64,000 bases of DNA from a virus. The notes beneath the pieces are model-generated. The model ran no database searches, was not told the DNA's origin, and saw only the letters and a list, made by a program, of their open reading frames with translations. Position 1 is the stretch's first letter, and each line of letters opens with the position of its first letter. Positions 3,471-59,400 of the stretch are shown in pieces. Location: IMG/VR virus record IMGVR_UViG_3300045988_183245; one strand, 5' to 3'. The position numbers were made by a program, and so were the translations under genes.

Positions 3471-3490
3471 CCCGCGACTTTAGTCGTGGG
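3471..3490. repeat. IS200/IS605-type end-hairpin palindrome, solo copy (cccgcgactttagtcgtggg)
   Basis: 20-bp near-perfect palindrome. Almost identical copies flank tnpB elements at 43644, 53319 and 59382; here there is no adjacent tnp gene. Confidence 0.55.
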
Positions 3491-5024
3491 TTATTGACTC
3501 TTCAGTTTTCTTTTTCAGCCATTGTCTTCTCACAAACGGCGTGACATAAGTTTCATCACTCTTCAGCTCATAGCCATAGCTTTCAGCTATCAGGATGGCA
3601 CGTTCGCTTGCTTTCTGTCCGGCAGGCAGGTGGCGAATGAAACCATTGATGTTTTTGGACGAAGCATCATATTTGGACTTGTCGAACACCCGCAGCGGCT
3701 CGTCGTCACCATTGCCTTTCTTGCGATAATCGCGGGGCTTTCCGCCAATCATCAGACAACGAATCCCAAATGGAGCATCCGCGTGTGTCACAAACGAAGA
3801 CCGGAACGACGCATCAGTGGGCAGAACATCCGGCAAATCACAGGCGAGAGAAGTGTACAGCCAGAGAATCAGATTCGTGACGCTGTCAACCAGCTCTGGA
3901 AATTGAGCTCGGTCAGTCAAAATATAAAACCACTCGGTGCTTGTGTTATAGTATCCGGCCAGGTCACCGAACTTGGTTACGATTTTATACAGACATACAA
4001 TCTCGTTGTCGCGGCAAGTCTCTTTCAGCTTAATTTCCTGTATCAGCTGGCAGGCATCAAACTGAAACAATGCACCGTTGGCGGGAAGAGTTCTGCGGCG
4101 ATGGTGCAGCGTATCTTTCAGAAACTCTGTCGTATATTTGGGTGAGATGGGCTTTGGCCACCAGGACCACATGTTCGGAGTATTCTCAATCAGCGGCTTG
4201 TCCGGCAACATGTCCACGGTATACTCGTTCACATAGGTGGCCATCGAAAGGACAGTGTTCGTATACAAATGCGAGAGCAAAGCGAGGTCGTTGATGCTAT
4301 CGAAATCTGCAACATTCTCATAGCCATAACGCTTATAGTACGAAAAGACCATATCCAAGCGTCTGTCTTCAGAAATCTGAGATTCACATTTGTCGTATGG
4401 CCGATTGTTGAAAAGAGCATCACTATAATAGACAGGAACATCGGCGAGGGGATAGGGGTCCCGGATGATGATTGGCTCGTTCTCAGTTGAGATACCGACA
4501 ATGTTGTTCACAATATCGAATTCCTGAGGCTTGAGGTATTCGCTCCCCTGCATCAGCATATCGATTACCGCGTACAGGACAGAATCATTACGTTCCACAT
4601 TTCCGTCAATGAATAATCCTGAATGAACACATTCCTGCGCATAAGCAATAGCCTTGAAATACAGAGCATAGTCCTTATTCTTCTTGATGGGCTTTGTGAG
4701 CCCCTGCAAAAACTGATGATAGCCTTTAATGAACTTGTCGGGGTTTGCCATGGCAAGCTCTACCTGAGAGCTGACGGCCTCAATGATGGGTTTGCACTCC
4801 TCAGCTTCACGGACCAGGTGAAAGAGGAAAGTAGATGCTTTCCCAAAATCCATGTCATGCAATGTCGTCGCAACCTGGCAAGCGCTGGACAGGGTTCTTC
4901 TCTGAAATACCCAGATAGACTCGCCCTTGCTCCGATATTTCTTATCCCATACCGGTGCGTATTTATCGACTAAGGTATTACCGAAATCTTCCTGCACTGC
5001 CAAAACACCATTTTCGTTCTGCAC
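3480..5024 (-). CDS. hypothetical protein (514 aa), second gene of a two-gene operon with the HD-domain protein
   Basis: Long ORF with a 10-nt gap to the upstream gene on the same strand; no recognisable catalytic motif. Confidence 0.6.
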   Translation of the reverse strand: MQNENGVLAVQEDFGNTLVDKYAPVWDKKYRSKGESIWVFQRRTLSSACQVATTLHDMDFGKASTFLFHLVREAEECKPIIEAVSSQVELAMANPDKFIKGYHQFLQGLTKPIKKNKDYALYFKAIAYAQECVHSGLFIDGNVERNDSVLYAVIDMLMQGSEYLKPQEFDIVNNIVGISTENEPIIIRDPYPLADVPVYYSDALFNNRPYDKCESQISEDRRLDMVFSYYKRYGYENVADFDSINDLALLSHLYTNTVLSMATYVNEYTVDMLPDKPLIENTPNMWSWWPKPISPKYTTEFLKDTLHHRRRTLPANGALFQFDACQLIQEIKLKETCRDNEIVCLYKIVTKFGDLAGYYNTSTEWFYILTDRAQFPELVDSVTNLILWLYTSLACDLPDVLPTDASFRSSFVTHADAPFGIRCLMIGGKPRDYRKKGNGDDEPLRVFDKSKYDASSKNINGFIRHLPAGQKASERAILIAESYGYELKSDETYVTPFVRRQWLKKKTEESITHD

Positions 5025-5034
5025 GGTATCCTCC

Positions 5035-6432
5035 TTACAACTTTAACTGCCCCACACAACTCTGCGCAGTGGGCAGTAGTTTGTGGGTTATCTCGTTGCG
5101 GAAATACTTAGGGTCCACGGCCCGCATCCCGAACCGCACACGGTCTAAAGCATCTGCATCCTTGAGAATCGTATATAGCAGCCACACCCGTTCTTTGTCC
5201 CGGATATTGGATGCTTTGAGGTCTGCAAGAGCCTTGCGGTCATCCAAGCAATGATACTCGATGAGGAAAGCAGTTGCCGGATTGCAGTCGGAGGCTGTGT
5301 CATAATAAATGTCCCTAGACTTTGCTCCGTGGCTGTCATCGACATCATCGTTTGTCCGCCCAATATCATGATAAAGAATCGCATCACATAGCTGGTGGGA
5401 TTCTTTTTTTGTTAAGGCAATGCCCTGAACCTGAACCAAAAGCAGCGCATCAAAGAGAACTCGCAGCGTATGCTCGGCGTCGTGCTCCTCATCATTAGCC
5501 CGGCCATAAGCATCATACAGAGAGGAAATGCGGCTCCGGTAGCGCTGGTAGAGAGGGTAGAACTCCTGAATTTCATCTGTCAGAGCGTTAATGCCGTACA
5601 GTGTATCGACCTTTCTATCTTTTACGGCAGCCGGTGGGACAAGGACCTCTTTTTCTTCATCATTCGGAAAATACTCGATGATGTCACATTTGCTGACATG
5701 GGCAGTGATGATTCTGCTGTTCTCGAGACTCGGGATGCGGCAGGCAAAGAAACAGGCTGCCTTGTAGCTTGTGGTCCAGGAGAAAGATTTCTCGTATGGA
5801 GTTGATTTGCTTCCCTCCCCACGATAGATGGTCACAATATCCGGCAGGCTGGATAGCTTCTTTTCAGTGTTCTGCTTTTGTTTCTGAGACTTTCCAGAAA
5901 AGACTTTCTGAAGGTTTTCCTCTTTGAGAGCCGAGAACCCAAAATCACTGGTACGATAGAAGTCCAAAAAAAGTGCGTATAGATTCTCACCCGGACTGGA
6001 CAACTCAATGTATTTAGAAAGAACCGATACACGCAGGCTGTCTCCCAGGGAAAAGAGGTAGCTGCGAATGAAGGGGGCGTTCCCCGATGAGATTTTCTCG
6101 GCCATATCCAGAATTCTCTGCTGAAACTTTTCGTCCGATTCGCTGTTCACAGCCAGACGCTTGTCCCCGTAAATGTTCAGAGAGAGAACAATGGGAACGG
6201 TCGTGCTATCGAGCTCGCAATAATAGAGAGGAGCAAGCATATTGTGCGCAGCATAGATTCTGTCGACAGGAAGCCTCGGATACTTCTTAGCAAATTCGTT
6301 GGCCGTTAAGCCGACACTGTAGCCTTCTTTGTAGTACCGTTCAATGTCAGCACTTGTCTGCACTGCAGTGAGGGGTAACATCGTCTCGAGACTTGCTTGG
6401 TTGATGCTTACAAGAATATCCCCGACCGTCAT
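5035..6432 (-). CDS. HD-domain (metal-dependent phosphohydrolase-like) protein, 465 aa
   Basis: The C-terminal region carries H...HD...D spacing (LYHDIGR ... KDADALDR) typical of the HD superfamily. The N-terminal ~300 aa is unassigned. Confidence 0.55.
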   Translation of the reverse strand: MTVGDILVSINQASLETMLPLTAVQTSADIERYYKEGYSVGLTANEFAKKYPRLPVDRIYAAHNMLAPLYYCELDSTTVPIVLSLNIYGDKRLAVNSESDEKFQQRILDMAEKISSGNAPFIRSYLFSLGDSLRVSVLSKYIELSSPGENLYALFLDFYRTSDFGFSALKEENLQKVFSGKSQKQKQNTEKKLSSLPDIVTIYRGEGSKSTPYEKSFSWTTSYKAACFFACRIPSLENSRIITAHVSKCDIIEYFPNDEEKEVLVPPAAVKDRKVDTLYGINALTDEIQEFYPLYQRYRSRISSLYDAYGRANDEEHDAEHTLRVLFDALLLVQVQGIALTKKESHQLCDAILYHDIGRTNDDVDDSHGAKSRDIYYDTASDCNPATAFLIEYHCLDDRKALADLKASNIRDKERVWLLYTILKDADALDRVRFGMRAVDPKYFRNEITHKLLPTAQSCVGQLKL

Positions 6433-7011
6433 TGTTTTTCTCCTCCCACAATTCTTTCTAACATAATTATATCATATTTTACAGATGGACGGGCCAAAAT
6501 CGCAACTTTGTTCATGAATACTTAACCTTTATGCACGAGATTTATTGTTGCCTTAATATATAAAACTAGAGCCCCGTCATCTTGGATGGGGCTCTTGAGT
6601 TGTAGCTGGAGGTGTATCTCATTTTGTGCCAGGGGTATTGTATGGTAGTTTTCGAAAATGAGTGCAAAAAAACAAACACCAGAAGTCAAACTCAAAAATA
6701 TCTTAGTCTTGGCAAGTTTACCCTTGCGCCGCTGTGCGAACCTCATAAAATAGAAATTGTACAAGAGAAACGGCAAGTGACGTTCATCGCGATTGTAGTT
6801 GGTCGCCACGAATCGATGCCGTGTCTGCTTGCGCATAATTACCTCTTTTCGAAGCCCACAGGTCATTCTCTCACCTGTGGGTTTTGTTTATTGCGGAATC
6901 GTGCGAATTGCAGACAATTAAAGACAGAGCGATTGTGAGATGGGGCGATACCGATGCAGTAGGGATGAGAATCTTAGCAGCTAAAAAACTGAATATGGAG
7001 AAACAAAAATT

Positions 7012-58925: not shown

Positions 58926-59116
58926 AAAAGCCACTTGCACAAATGTGCGAACCGCCTAAAATAATAATTGCATAACAGATACCATCACTTACCTCCTAAT
59001 TGAACATTAAATTAACAATCTGTCATGCACAAGTAAGCAGACTCTCTTTTGAGGGCCTGCTTCTTTTTTTGTATGTATTGATTAGAAACAAAAATATTTC
59101 AGAAAGGATGAATACT

Positions 59117-59359
59117 ATGACCACAAATACCAAGAACAGTTTTACCAGGTTCGCGGCTGCCGCAAAAGATTGCTTCTATGTGAATTCTTTTCGCGCAGAC
59201 TTAGTTCAGTGCGACAGGGCCTTGAAAATGGACGGCGAGATGCACGTCGAAGCGGAATGCTGGATGAACATTTTGGATGCCCTGGACGATAACGACATCA
59301 AGATGTATGTCGATAACGAATACCGTCCCGGACTTCTGAACCCGTTCCATAAATGGTGA
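59117..59359 (+). CDS. hypothetical protein (80 aa)
   Basis: RBS aaagga 9 nt upstream; a terminator-family hairpin lies upstream at 59038-59070. Confidence 0.4.
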   Translation: MTTNTKNSFTRFAAAAKDCFYVNSFRADLVQCDRALKMDGEMHVEAECWMNILDALDDNDIKMYVDNEYRPGLLNPFHKW

Positions 59360-59381
59360 CGCTCCAAAAACAAGTCAATAA

Positions 59382-59400
59382 CCCACGACTAAAGTCGCAG
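59382..59400. repeat. degenerate copy of the cccacgactttagtcgtggg hairpin, in inverted orientation
   Basis: The sequence is cccacgactaaagtcgcagg; the left arm is conserved and the right arm has two substitutions. Confidence 0.4.

Follow-up and report, generated by a model that had tools for sequence, protein, structure and literature searches.

How can one short hairpin stand at the ends of insertion sequences with quite different genes and also occur alone? This question is raised by a stretch of viral DNA of 64,000 nt (IMG/VR record IMGVR_UViG_3300045988_183245; called here the window, always at its full length), in which a hairpin-forming palindrome lies at ten sites between positions 3471 and 59401. 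An earlier note on this DNA had assigned the hairpins to the ends of several IS200/IS605 elements with tnpA and tnpB genes. We put the probability at roughly 85% that they are the subterminal left-end (LE) and right-end (RE) hairpins of an IS608-like group of IS200/IS605 elements in large gut phages, and that the solo copies are leftovers of such elements.

Results

Hairpin copies in the window

All ten sites listed in the earlier note are found in the window. The window was searched with the pattern CCCAC-N8-12-GTGGG, and dinucleotide-preserving shuffles of it (n=100) served as control. Seven perfect palindromes were obtained (at 9155, 11681, 34874, 37013, 43644, 44995 and 55799) as compared to 0.08 expected, and none of the 100 shuffles reached seven. 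The description of the whole family as perfect palindromes holds for these seven sites but not for the other three: the copies at 3471 and 53319 read CCCGCGACTTTAGTCGTGGG with one G.T wobble, and the copy at 59382 reads CCTGCGACTTTAGTCGTGGG on the minus strand with two. As single-stranded DNA all copies fold into an 8-bp stem with a 4-nt loop (−3.7 to −8.5 kcal/mol). In the wobble copies the complementary strand gives a weaker fold (−2.5 to −4.4 kcal/mol versus −3.7 to −7.1 kcal/mol), and therefore the hairpins have a preferred strand, called here the top strand. Its loops are TTCA, TTTA or GTGA. The flanks form an LE-like class, with ..GGAAA(G/A) before the hairpin and ATGAAAGG or AGGAAT after it, and an RE-like class, ..GAAT-hairpin-AG-NNNN-GTCAA plus variants. 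A full-text literature search with the hairpin sequences gave no match.

Borders of the elements

Insertion borders were read from a comparison set of about 190 related viral contigs (up to 389 kb) obtained by an IMG/VR search with three flanking proteins. Exact-protein look-ups with tnpA and one flanking gene returned the same locus only, on metagenome contigs, and yielded no empty sites; no megablast match to 12-34.8 kb was obtained among GenBank phages. The window is part of a large gut phage genome and not of a bacterial chromosome, because its relatives are viral contigs in IMG/VR and because of its gene content: 17 tRNA genes, hepatitis delta virus (HDV)-like ribozymes, and Mor-like and Cas-like genes.

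Four gene-carrying elements (A to D, Table 1) and two mini units of 45 and 48 nt show precise presence or absence among the relatives, with no target duplication. The LE hairpin lies 17-19 nt from the left border and the RE hairpin 8-10 nt from the right border; in A, B and C the two hairpins have the same orientation, 17-19 and 9-10 nt from the empty-site borders. Insertion has occurred after TTTAC in A, ATCAC in B, TTTAT in C, TTTGAC in D and TCAT in a further element type, E, seen in relatives. ACAAAA or ATAAAA was considered as a target motif and rejected, since empty sites assign AAAA to the LE. Alignment of the element ends, which the earlier note had proposed as a check, thus defined LE, RE and target tetranucleotides, and the borders of A to D fall just outside the hairpins, as expected for IS200/IS605 ends. 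Gene-carrying units own seven hairpins rather than the eight counted earlier, namely three LE/RE pairs and the RE of the truncated element D. The earlier note had also named the finding that would overturn it, a repetitive extragenic palindrome (REP) family unlinked to tnp genes. No such generic family came to light: the related phage loci gave 36 hairpin site classes, assigned by eye, all 36 resembling an LE, an RE or an LE-RE fusion (class L113 being ambiguous between RE and fusion).

Table 1. Coordinates of the IS200/IS605 elements and of the solo hairpin units in the window (^ marks an insertion border)
Feature	Position	Strand	Description
Element A	9146-11719	- (top strand)	2574 nt between empty-site borders
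A, RE arm	9146-9154	-	
A, RE hairpin	9155-9174	-	
A, tnpB	9405-10031 and 9949-11151		579-aa type, split
A, tnpA	11156-11557		Y1 transposase
A, LE hairpin	11681-11700		
A, LE arm	11701-11719		
Element B	34855-37042	+	2188 nt, tnpB-only
B, LE hairpin	34874-34893		
B, ORF	35024-36763		579-aa TnpB-like
B, RE hairpin	37013-37032		
Element C	43626-45024	+	1399 nt
C, LE hairpin	43644-43663		
C, tnpB	43792-44913		classic zinc-finger type
C, RE hairpin	44995-45014		
Element D	51535-53347	+	1813 nt, without LE
D, tnpA	51535-51850		5'-truncated
D, ORF	51869-53200		443-aa TnpB-like
D, RE hairpin	53319-53338		
LE-RE fusion, E type	3454-3498	+	45 nt; LE arm AAATCAGGGCAAGGAGA, hairpin 3471-3490, RE arm TTATTGAC
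LE-RE fusion, A type	55790-55837	-	48 nt; TTTAC^CAAACGAAGGCCGGG-GAAT-CCCACGATTTCAATCGTGGG-AGGTGTCAA^GG
Orphan RE with putative IscB omegaRNA (HEARO)	59374-59649	RNA +; RE - (top strand)	
Orphan RE, hairpin	59382-59401	-	
Orphan RE, arm	59374-59381	-	

Guides and cleavage sites

The tetranucleotide that adjoins the hairpin foot on its 5' side, called here the guide, changes together with the one at the corresponding border. Specifically, the LE pairs of guide and cleavage site are AAAG/TTAC in A, AAAA/TTAT in C, GAAG/TCAC in the B family, and GAGA or GATA with TCAT in E; the RE pairs are GAAT/TCAA in A, B and C, GAAG/TCAC in D and CAAG/TGAC in E. Covariation is consistent across these seven pairs: the base at cleavage-site position 2 varies with that at guide position 1, and the two fourth positions vary together.

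The same 20-mer was found in at least 120 genomes of bacteria and archaea by a scan with the hairpin pattern, which pointed to no particular host of the phage. Around it the same grammar is seen in haloarchaea, Micrarchaeota, Clostridia, Anoxybacillus and others, with GAAC/TCAG as an extra pair. Because the grammar recurs in unrelated bacteria and archaea, the hairpin type is old and widespread. A different context is seen in Bacteroidota and Ignavibacteria (L202, L210, L212, L222, L223, L240, L253, L266 and others), where the hairpin follows NTAG, TTAA or TCAA, AACCGTT comes about 25 nt later and several copies can lie 90-140 nt apart. This context may be REP-like or belong to another element family.

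Genes and condition of the elements

Element A interrupts a 207-aa open reading frame (ORF), and its site is empty in nine relatives. On the minus strand its junctions read CTTTAC^AAAATGAAGGCTGGGAAAG-hairpin ... GAAT-hairpin-AGGTGTCAA^TGCC. The product of its tnpA matches Pfam Y1_Tnp (1.8e-31) and NCBIfam transpos_IS200 (8e-35) and can be aligned to the solved TnpA structures 2ec2 and 2a6m (81 bits to PDB 2a6m). Its HUH motif is D-Y-C-H, where solved TnpAs have D-H-x-H and 96%-identical copies in relatives have D-H-C-H. Because the first His of the motif, kept in these close relatives, is replaced by Tyr, the transposase is probably impaired. The earlier note called this gene the only intact tnpA; it is indeed the sole full-length tnpA in the window, but "intact" does not fit a motif that reads YCH. 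The tnpB of A is a frameshifted copy of the ORF of B (70-76% DNA identity), and the frameshift results from a 10-nt indel relative to L002. The same His-to-Tyr change at the first HUH His occurs in two unrelated tnpA genes, DYCHLF in A of the window and DYIHLL in a D-type copy of L083 (5445-5816), and close relatives of both copies retain His.

Element B is missing from more than 50 relatives and present in about nine. The empty site CCATATCAC^TTATACATT is filled as CCATATCAC^AAAATCCGCGCCAAGGAAA-hairpin ... GAAT-hairpin-AGTACGTCAA^TTATACATT, with the outer junction letters CCATATCAC^AAAATCC...GTACGTCAA^TTATACATT. Its 579-aa ORF matches NCBIfam guided_TnpB end to end with 64 bits, below the cut-off of 100. 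Homologues with 31-42% identity in Geobacillus virus E3, C. difficile phiCD211 and C. botulinum phage c-st are annotated as transposase/OrfB, and because of these annotated phage homologues the protein is considered to be probably OrfB/TnpB-like. The LE guide of B is GAAA in the window and GAAG in other copies, including that of L364 at the same site; GAAA has a C.A mismatch against its TCAC site.

The empty site of element C, GATTTTAT^TGTAAAAGCC, is present in more than 70 relatives, and the right end of the element reads AGTGTGTCAA. Its tnpB has OrfB_IS605 and TNB domain matches and an IS200_TnpB match of 3e-63. There is an in-frame TGA at 44002, where TGG is present in 7/7 relatives compared. 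Directly 3' of C, at 45025-45090, about 634 nt of the relatives are missing between two CCTACGA/TATACGACCA stretches.

Element D is present in about nine relatives and absent from about 45. Its right end carries the RE arm AGGATTCAC, and its left junction, CTTTGAC^AAACGAAACAG, lies within tnpA. What remains is the 3' four-fifths of a Y1 transposase gene (transpos_IS200, 1.7e-31). The encoded protein is 32% identical to the TnpA of A, so that a second TnpA lineage is tied to the same hairpin family. In the relative L083 element D is full-length and has an LE of its own; the point at which the window copy is truncated comes there after an internal TTTTGAT (equivalent junction TTTTGAT^AAACGAAACAG, reverse strand). 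The D-type LE hairpin of L083 is CTTGTGACTTCAGTCATGAG, a diverged form. The start of D exactly after phage TTTGAC could be explained by a TnpA cut at an end-like motif inside the element, as reported for mutant ends (Meers et al. 2023, bioRxiv 10.1101/2023.03.14.532601); a microhomology deletion is the alternative. The hairpin at 53319 was considered as an LE and rejected, being the RE of the truncated D.

The 443-aa ORF of D matches guided_TnpB end to end with 72 bits, again below the cut-off of 100, and BLASTP similarity between the 579-aa and 443-aa proteins is not significant. In a by-eye reading of the translations both types keep the RuvC-like D/E/D motifs and lack the four zinc-finger cysteines. 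The cargo is therefore as heterogeneous as the earlier note had described it, with a classic TnpB in C, the cysteine-free 579-aa type in A and B and the 443-aa type in D, and relatives add a fifth type in element E: for example, L090 11257-12871 encodes a 420-aa IscB (RRXRR 1e-58, plus HNH), with iscB antisense to the hairpin strand. Published IscB elements are arranged in this way, their guide-RNA scaffold being derived from the RE (Meers et al. 2023). A fifth tnpB of the window (22431-23540), a classic one with HTH_OrfB_IS605, OrfB_IS605 and TNB domains, has no CCCAC-family hairpins nearby; it is preceded by a phage-type promoter motif. No Rfam family for a TnpB guide RNA was matched in the window search.

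Solo hairpins

At site 3471 exactly 45 nt are missing in three relatives (CTTCAT^TCTTCAG) and present in seven. The arms of this unit are those of element E: the left one equals the LE found in the complete E copies of L070 and L105, and the right one the E RE. The unit separates the stop codon of a 514-aa gene from its last sense codon. At site 55799 exactly 48 nt are missing in 33 relatives. Two alleles of equal length occur there, a GAAT form in nine sequences including the window and an AAAG form in seven, and they differ only at guide positions 1 and 4. Because each of the two units joins an LE arm to an RE arm, both are single-hairpin LE-RE fusions. We read them as scars of full-length insertions, left by in-register deletion between LE and RE. 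Collapse in place is favoured by the two alleles at 55799, by the single guide that matches one border, and by L104, in which a single hairpin joins an LE arm to an RE arm at a site where 27 relatives have the full 1.6-kb E. The two alleles are just what in-register crossovers between LE and RE would produce, to one or the other side of the guide. With one guide per solo only one border should be cleavable, and therefore these units are probably immobile.

The third solo is of another kind. The whole Rfam model of HEARO (RF02033; positions 1-211 of 211) aligns to 59374-59613 with 70.7 bits (gathering score 83) and E = 2.7e-14; this match came only from a 550-nt region searched alone, and the whole-window Rfam search gave no HEARO or TnpB-RNA family. 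The match begins exactly at the end of the RE, and the 5' GUCAA and first stem of the model are the complement of the RE arm and hairpin. The putative guide of this RNA would be 59354-59373. Moreover, 59374-59649 is 95% identical to L090 11257-11532, the stretch of E that runs from the RE to the start codon of iscB. The HEARO copy of L090 scores 84.6 bits and lies directly upstream of the 420-aa IscB. In the window no iscB follows 59374-59649; the next ORF (59746-60297, 183 aa) is unrelated and has no Pfam match. The relative L124 has the matching empty site, ...CAAAAACAA^ATGAA, in which ATGAA is the E target TTCAT read on the other strand. Judged from these matches, the third solo appears to be what is left of an IscB element, its RE and omegaRNA. 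A rearranged 7.5-kb block is flanked by copies of the orphan-type RE in some relatives. In place of the 1.6-kb E of L090-like relatives, the window has at 57646-58866 other sequence of 1221 nt, with the remainder of a 358-aa ORF and a 179-aa ORF (no Pfam matches).

The earlier note had taken the solos for derivatives similar to PATEs (palindrome-associated transposable elements), which are gene-less and have both an LE and an RE hairpin. This does not hold for the window: 3454-3498 and 55790-55837 have one hairpin each, joining LE to RE with one guide, and 59374-59649 is an orphan RE with omegaRNA. Distant relatives do have a true PATE, with an LE and an RE hairpin at a distance of 103 nt (L175 7861-7983).

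Other features of the window

A cas-like cluster consists of Cas8c/Csd1 (19516-20994, Pfam 1.7e-49) and Cas7 (20997-21959, 3.9e-53). It is followed by GATTGAAAC at 22084, the TnpB gene at 22431-23540 and a 908-aa UvrD-like helicase (23694-26420). Three HDV-like ribozymes (Rfam HDV-F-prausnitzii, gathering score 44) at 47555-47635, 47784-47855 and 49369-49436 score 50, 34 and 42 bits; they lie within the cluster of 17 tRNA genes, where tRNA-Thr follows 4 nt after the end of the first. A further call, by ARAGORN, is an odd tRNA with a 2-nt anticodon at 49069-49144. A promoter-like motif with conserved spacer, TTGC-N7-TGTGCGAAT(T/C)GC-N-TACAAT, occurs upstream of many plus-strand genes between 6733 and 61833 (for example 6891-6931, 14802-14848, 16013-16059, 19147-19193, 22222-22278 and 39654-39700) and is probably a phage-specific promoter or regulator site. 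Two tandem paralogous ORFs (932-2113 and 2216-3280) share an 84%-identical start with a lipoprotein-like signal (MKKVVSLALS...C).

Discussion

The system has the IS200/IS605 features that we looked at: a Y1 TnpA, subterminal hairpins on the same strand, site-specific insertion without duplication, and TnpB or IscB as cargo. The closest likeness is to IS608 (ISHp608) of Helicobacter pylori, which also has a Y1 HUH TnpA, lacks terminal inverted repeats and target duplication, and has hairpins on one strand, about 19 nt (LE) and about 10 nt (RE) from its ends. Element A even has the published left guide/target pair of IS608, AAAG/TTAC. The elements differ from IS608 in the hairpin sequence, the gut-phage hosts, the retargeted guides (TTAT, TCAC, TCAT and TGAC as sites) and the cargo, which includes the cysteine-free 579-aa TnpB-like protein, the 443-aa one and IscB. 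At the right end IS608 reportedly has the pair GAAT/TCAA, that is, a TCAA end with GAAT 5' of the RE hairpin, as in A, B and C.

By analogy with IS608, each end would fold on the top strand into the 8-bp/4-nt hairpin, the structure bound by Y1 (HUH) TnpA, and the 4 nt 5' of the hairpin foot would serve as a DNA guide by base pairing to the cleavage site. For the LE this site would be the target motif 17-19 nt upstream, and for the RE it would be the terminal tetranucleotide of the element, 8-10 nt downstream; the element would insert 3' of the target motif without duplication. Specificity would then lie in the DNA guide and not in the hairpin, so that one hairpin type can be common to elements that differ in cargo and target, and mobilisation of varied cargo in trans by one TnpA becomes plausible. 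The cargo nucleases (TnpB in A to D, IscB in E) may be expected to use a guide RNA spanning the RE, as in published systems; in our data such an RNA is evident for the IscB type alone, as the HEARO RNA with the RE hairpin as its first stem. Strand-specific 'peel and paste' transposition of single-stranded DNA through a circular intermediate, a further trait of the family, would be in line with the greater stability of the top-strand hairpins, the one indirect hint of it. Single-hairpin solos would arise by in-register deletion between LE and RE, similarly to solo long terminal repeats (LTRs). The parallel with solo LTRs concerns mechanism only: in both cases one terminal repeat is left after recombination between direct terminal repeats, but here the repeats are hairpin-forming ends of a DNA transposon, about 25 nt long.

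Several observations weigh against this interpretation. No transposition, excision junction or circle junction has been observed, TnpA activity and cross-mobilisation are what we infer by analogy, and the tnpA of the window is itself probably defective. The putative pairing rule (cleavage-site position 2 with guide position 1, 4 with 4, 1 with 2) is derived from covariation. In a cross-kingdom scan a Tnp-like ORF lay within 600 nt at 17 of 120 hairpin loci, as counted by single-sequence phmmer of low sensitivity. Finally, some facts about the mini units suggest that they may move. The E-type 45-nt architecture occurs with similar sequences at five distinct TTCAT sites in IMG/VR, the identical 48-mer is present at 3-4 other TTTAC sites, and no full-length element occupies 3471 or 55799 in the sampled relatives.

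These last facts are the strength of an alternative in which the 45- and 48-nt units are mobile minimal elements moved by TnpA in trans, each site being an independent insertion; the clean presence or absence of both units and their canonical borders (after TTCAT or TTTAC, ending TGAC or TCAA) agree with it as well. The structures of IS608, however, require LE and RE hairpins together in the canonical TnpA dimer, and each unit has one hairpin and one guide, AAAG and GAGA suiting the left site only and GAAT the right end only. Collapse in place is seen in L104, and the alleles at 55799 differ just as two crossover points predict. We therefore regard mobility of these units as unlikely. Copies in the AAAG state and the GAAT state, or two molecules in a replicating phage pool, might still supply left and right cleavage jointly. 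Equally doubtful, taken as a pair, are two bolder ideas: that the 45-48-nt units are the smallest mobilisable IS200/IS605 derivatives, and that an IscB whose gene lies elsewhere is directed by the orphan omegaRNA to cleave co-infecting phages without the insertion.

A more basic objection would be that the hairpins are a generic REP-like or terminator-like genome repeat found beside tnp genes by chance. Most matches of the 20-mer in the 120 or more bacterial and archaeal genomes have no Tnp ORF nearby by phmmer, the Bacteroidota/Ignavibacteria subgroup follows another flank grammar (NTAG or TTAA before the hairpin, AACCGTT after it), and the copy at 3471 adjoins a terminator-like stem. There is also a formal likeness to REPs and their associated tyrosine transposases (RAYTs): short single hairpins, a conserved tetranucleotide 5' of the foot and a relation to Y1 enzymes. 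In the window and its relatives, however, every site class can be read as an LE, an RE or a fusion, the hairpins lie at fixed distances from empty-site borders, and the guide varies with the cleavage site. A RAYT is lacking (the best REP_Tyr_transpos score, that of the D tnpA, is 36 bits, where 80 would be required), the arms and borders are of IS type, and there are ten copies, not hundreds. Within this phage lineage the REP explanation is already contradicted, and we give it very little credence. Still less credible is the notion that the hairpins mimic repeats of type I-C CRISPR (clustered regularly interspaced short palindromic repeats) through an ATTGAAA(C/T) loop and serve, as solitary repeats or RNA anti-CRISPRs, together with the phage cas8c and cas7. 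The genes for Cas8c (Csd1) and Cas7 do lie in the window (19516-21959), and on the plus strand the copies at 9155 and 55799 read ATTGAAAT and that at 11681 reads GTTGAAAC. The likeness is limited, however, to the non-top strand of A-type hairpins and absent from types B, C, D and E; no repeat-spacer array was found in the window, GATTGAAAC occurs once as compared to 0.77 expected by chance, and insertion borders account for every copy. The CRISPR link was rejected on the absence of an array and the chance level of the motif, in line with the remark of the earlier note that the likeness is probably coincidental.

Returning to the IS608-like elements, their state in this genome is one of decay. 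A has the D-Y-C-H motif and the tnpB frameshift, B an LE guide that departs from its family, C a TGA codon in tnpB, and D neither an LE nor a tnpA start. With disabling changes in all four elements, the window shows decay and not activity, and the claim that its single tnpA drives the whole set is unsupported for this genome. Shared ends, heterogeneous cargo and a precedent in Geobacillus, where one TnpA excises five ISGst families with common ends (Meers et al. 2023, bioRxiv 10.1101/2023.03.14.532601), speak for the idea that one Y1 TnpA could serve all elements in trans; the YCH motif and the second TnpA lineage speak against it. Any mobilising TnpA would have to come from elsewhere, either from other phage copies with an intact HUH motif or from the host.

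ISGst1-5 of Geobacillus stearothermophilus are families with TnpB, IscB or omegaRNA-only cargo, a common LE/RE structure and few tnpA genes, with aberrant excision at alternative end-like motifs and with the IscB guide-RNA scaffold derived from the RE (bioRxiv 10.1101/2023.03.14.532601). Varied cargo on common ends and an IscB omegaRNA scaffold from the RE are shared with the phage elements. Here, in contrast, the insertions segregate in a phage population, cross-mobilisation is something we infer, the local tnpA is probably defective, and single-hairpin fusions are frequent, whereas the PATEs of the ISGst paper keep both ends. A paper on Halanaerobium IS605 describes one two-ended PATE-like unit and no single-hairpin scars. 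PATEs and the solos of the window are alike in being short gene-less derivatives with IS200/IS605 end hairpins; the solos differ in having one hairpin and one guide or, at 59374-59649, the RE only, and this last one differs from HEARO RNAs proper in its score below the gathering threshold and in the missing iscB, although it spans the whole model. Single-hairpin LE-RE scars, paired AAAG/GAAT alleles and the phage-population setting were not found described in the literature searched. Mobilisation in trans of several TnpB, IscB and omegaRNA-only families by one TnpA is already published for Geobacillus, and the known mechanism is unchanged by our findings.

In the phage lineage IS200/IS605 biology can be seen in a natural setting and at the level of populations. 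One end hairpin serves at least five cargo types, the insertions segregate among close relatives, and retargeting takes place simply by changing the 4-nt DNA guide. A path of decay can be followed through point mutations, aberrant truncation, collapse of LE and RE to a scar of 45-48 nt, and orphan guide RNAs; the scars account for short solo hairpins that would otherwise be annotated as REPs or terminators. The set of filled, empty and scarred sites could be used to ask whether TnpB and IscB are homing drives among co-infecting phages. If the orphan omegaRNA does work with an IscB encoded elsewhere, RNA-guided nucleases would be homing drives in the phage population.

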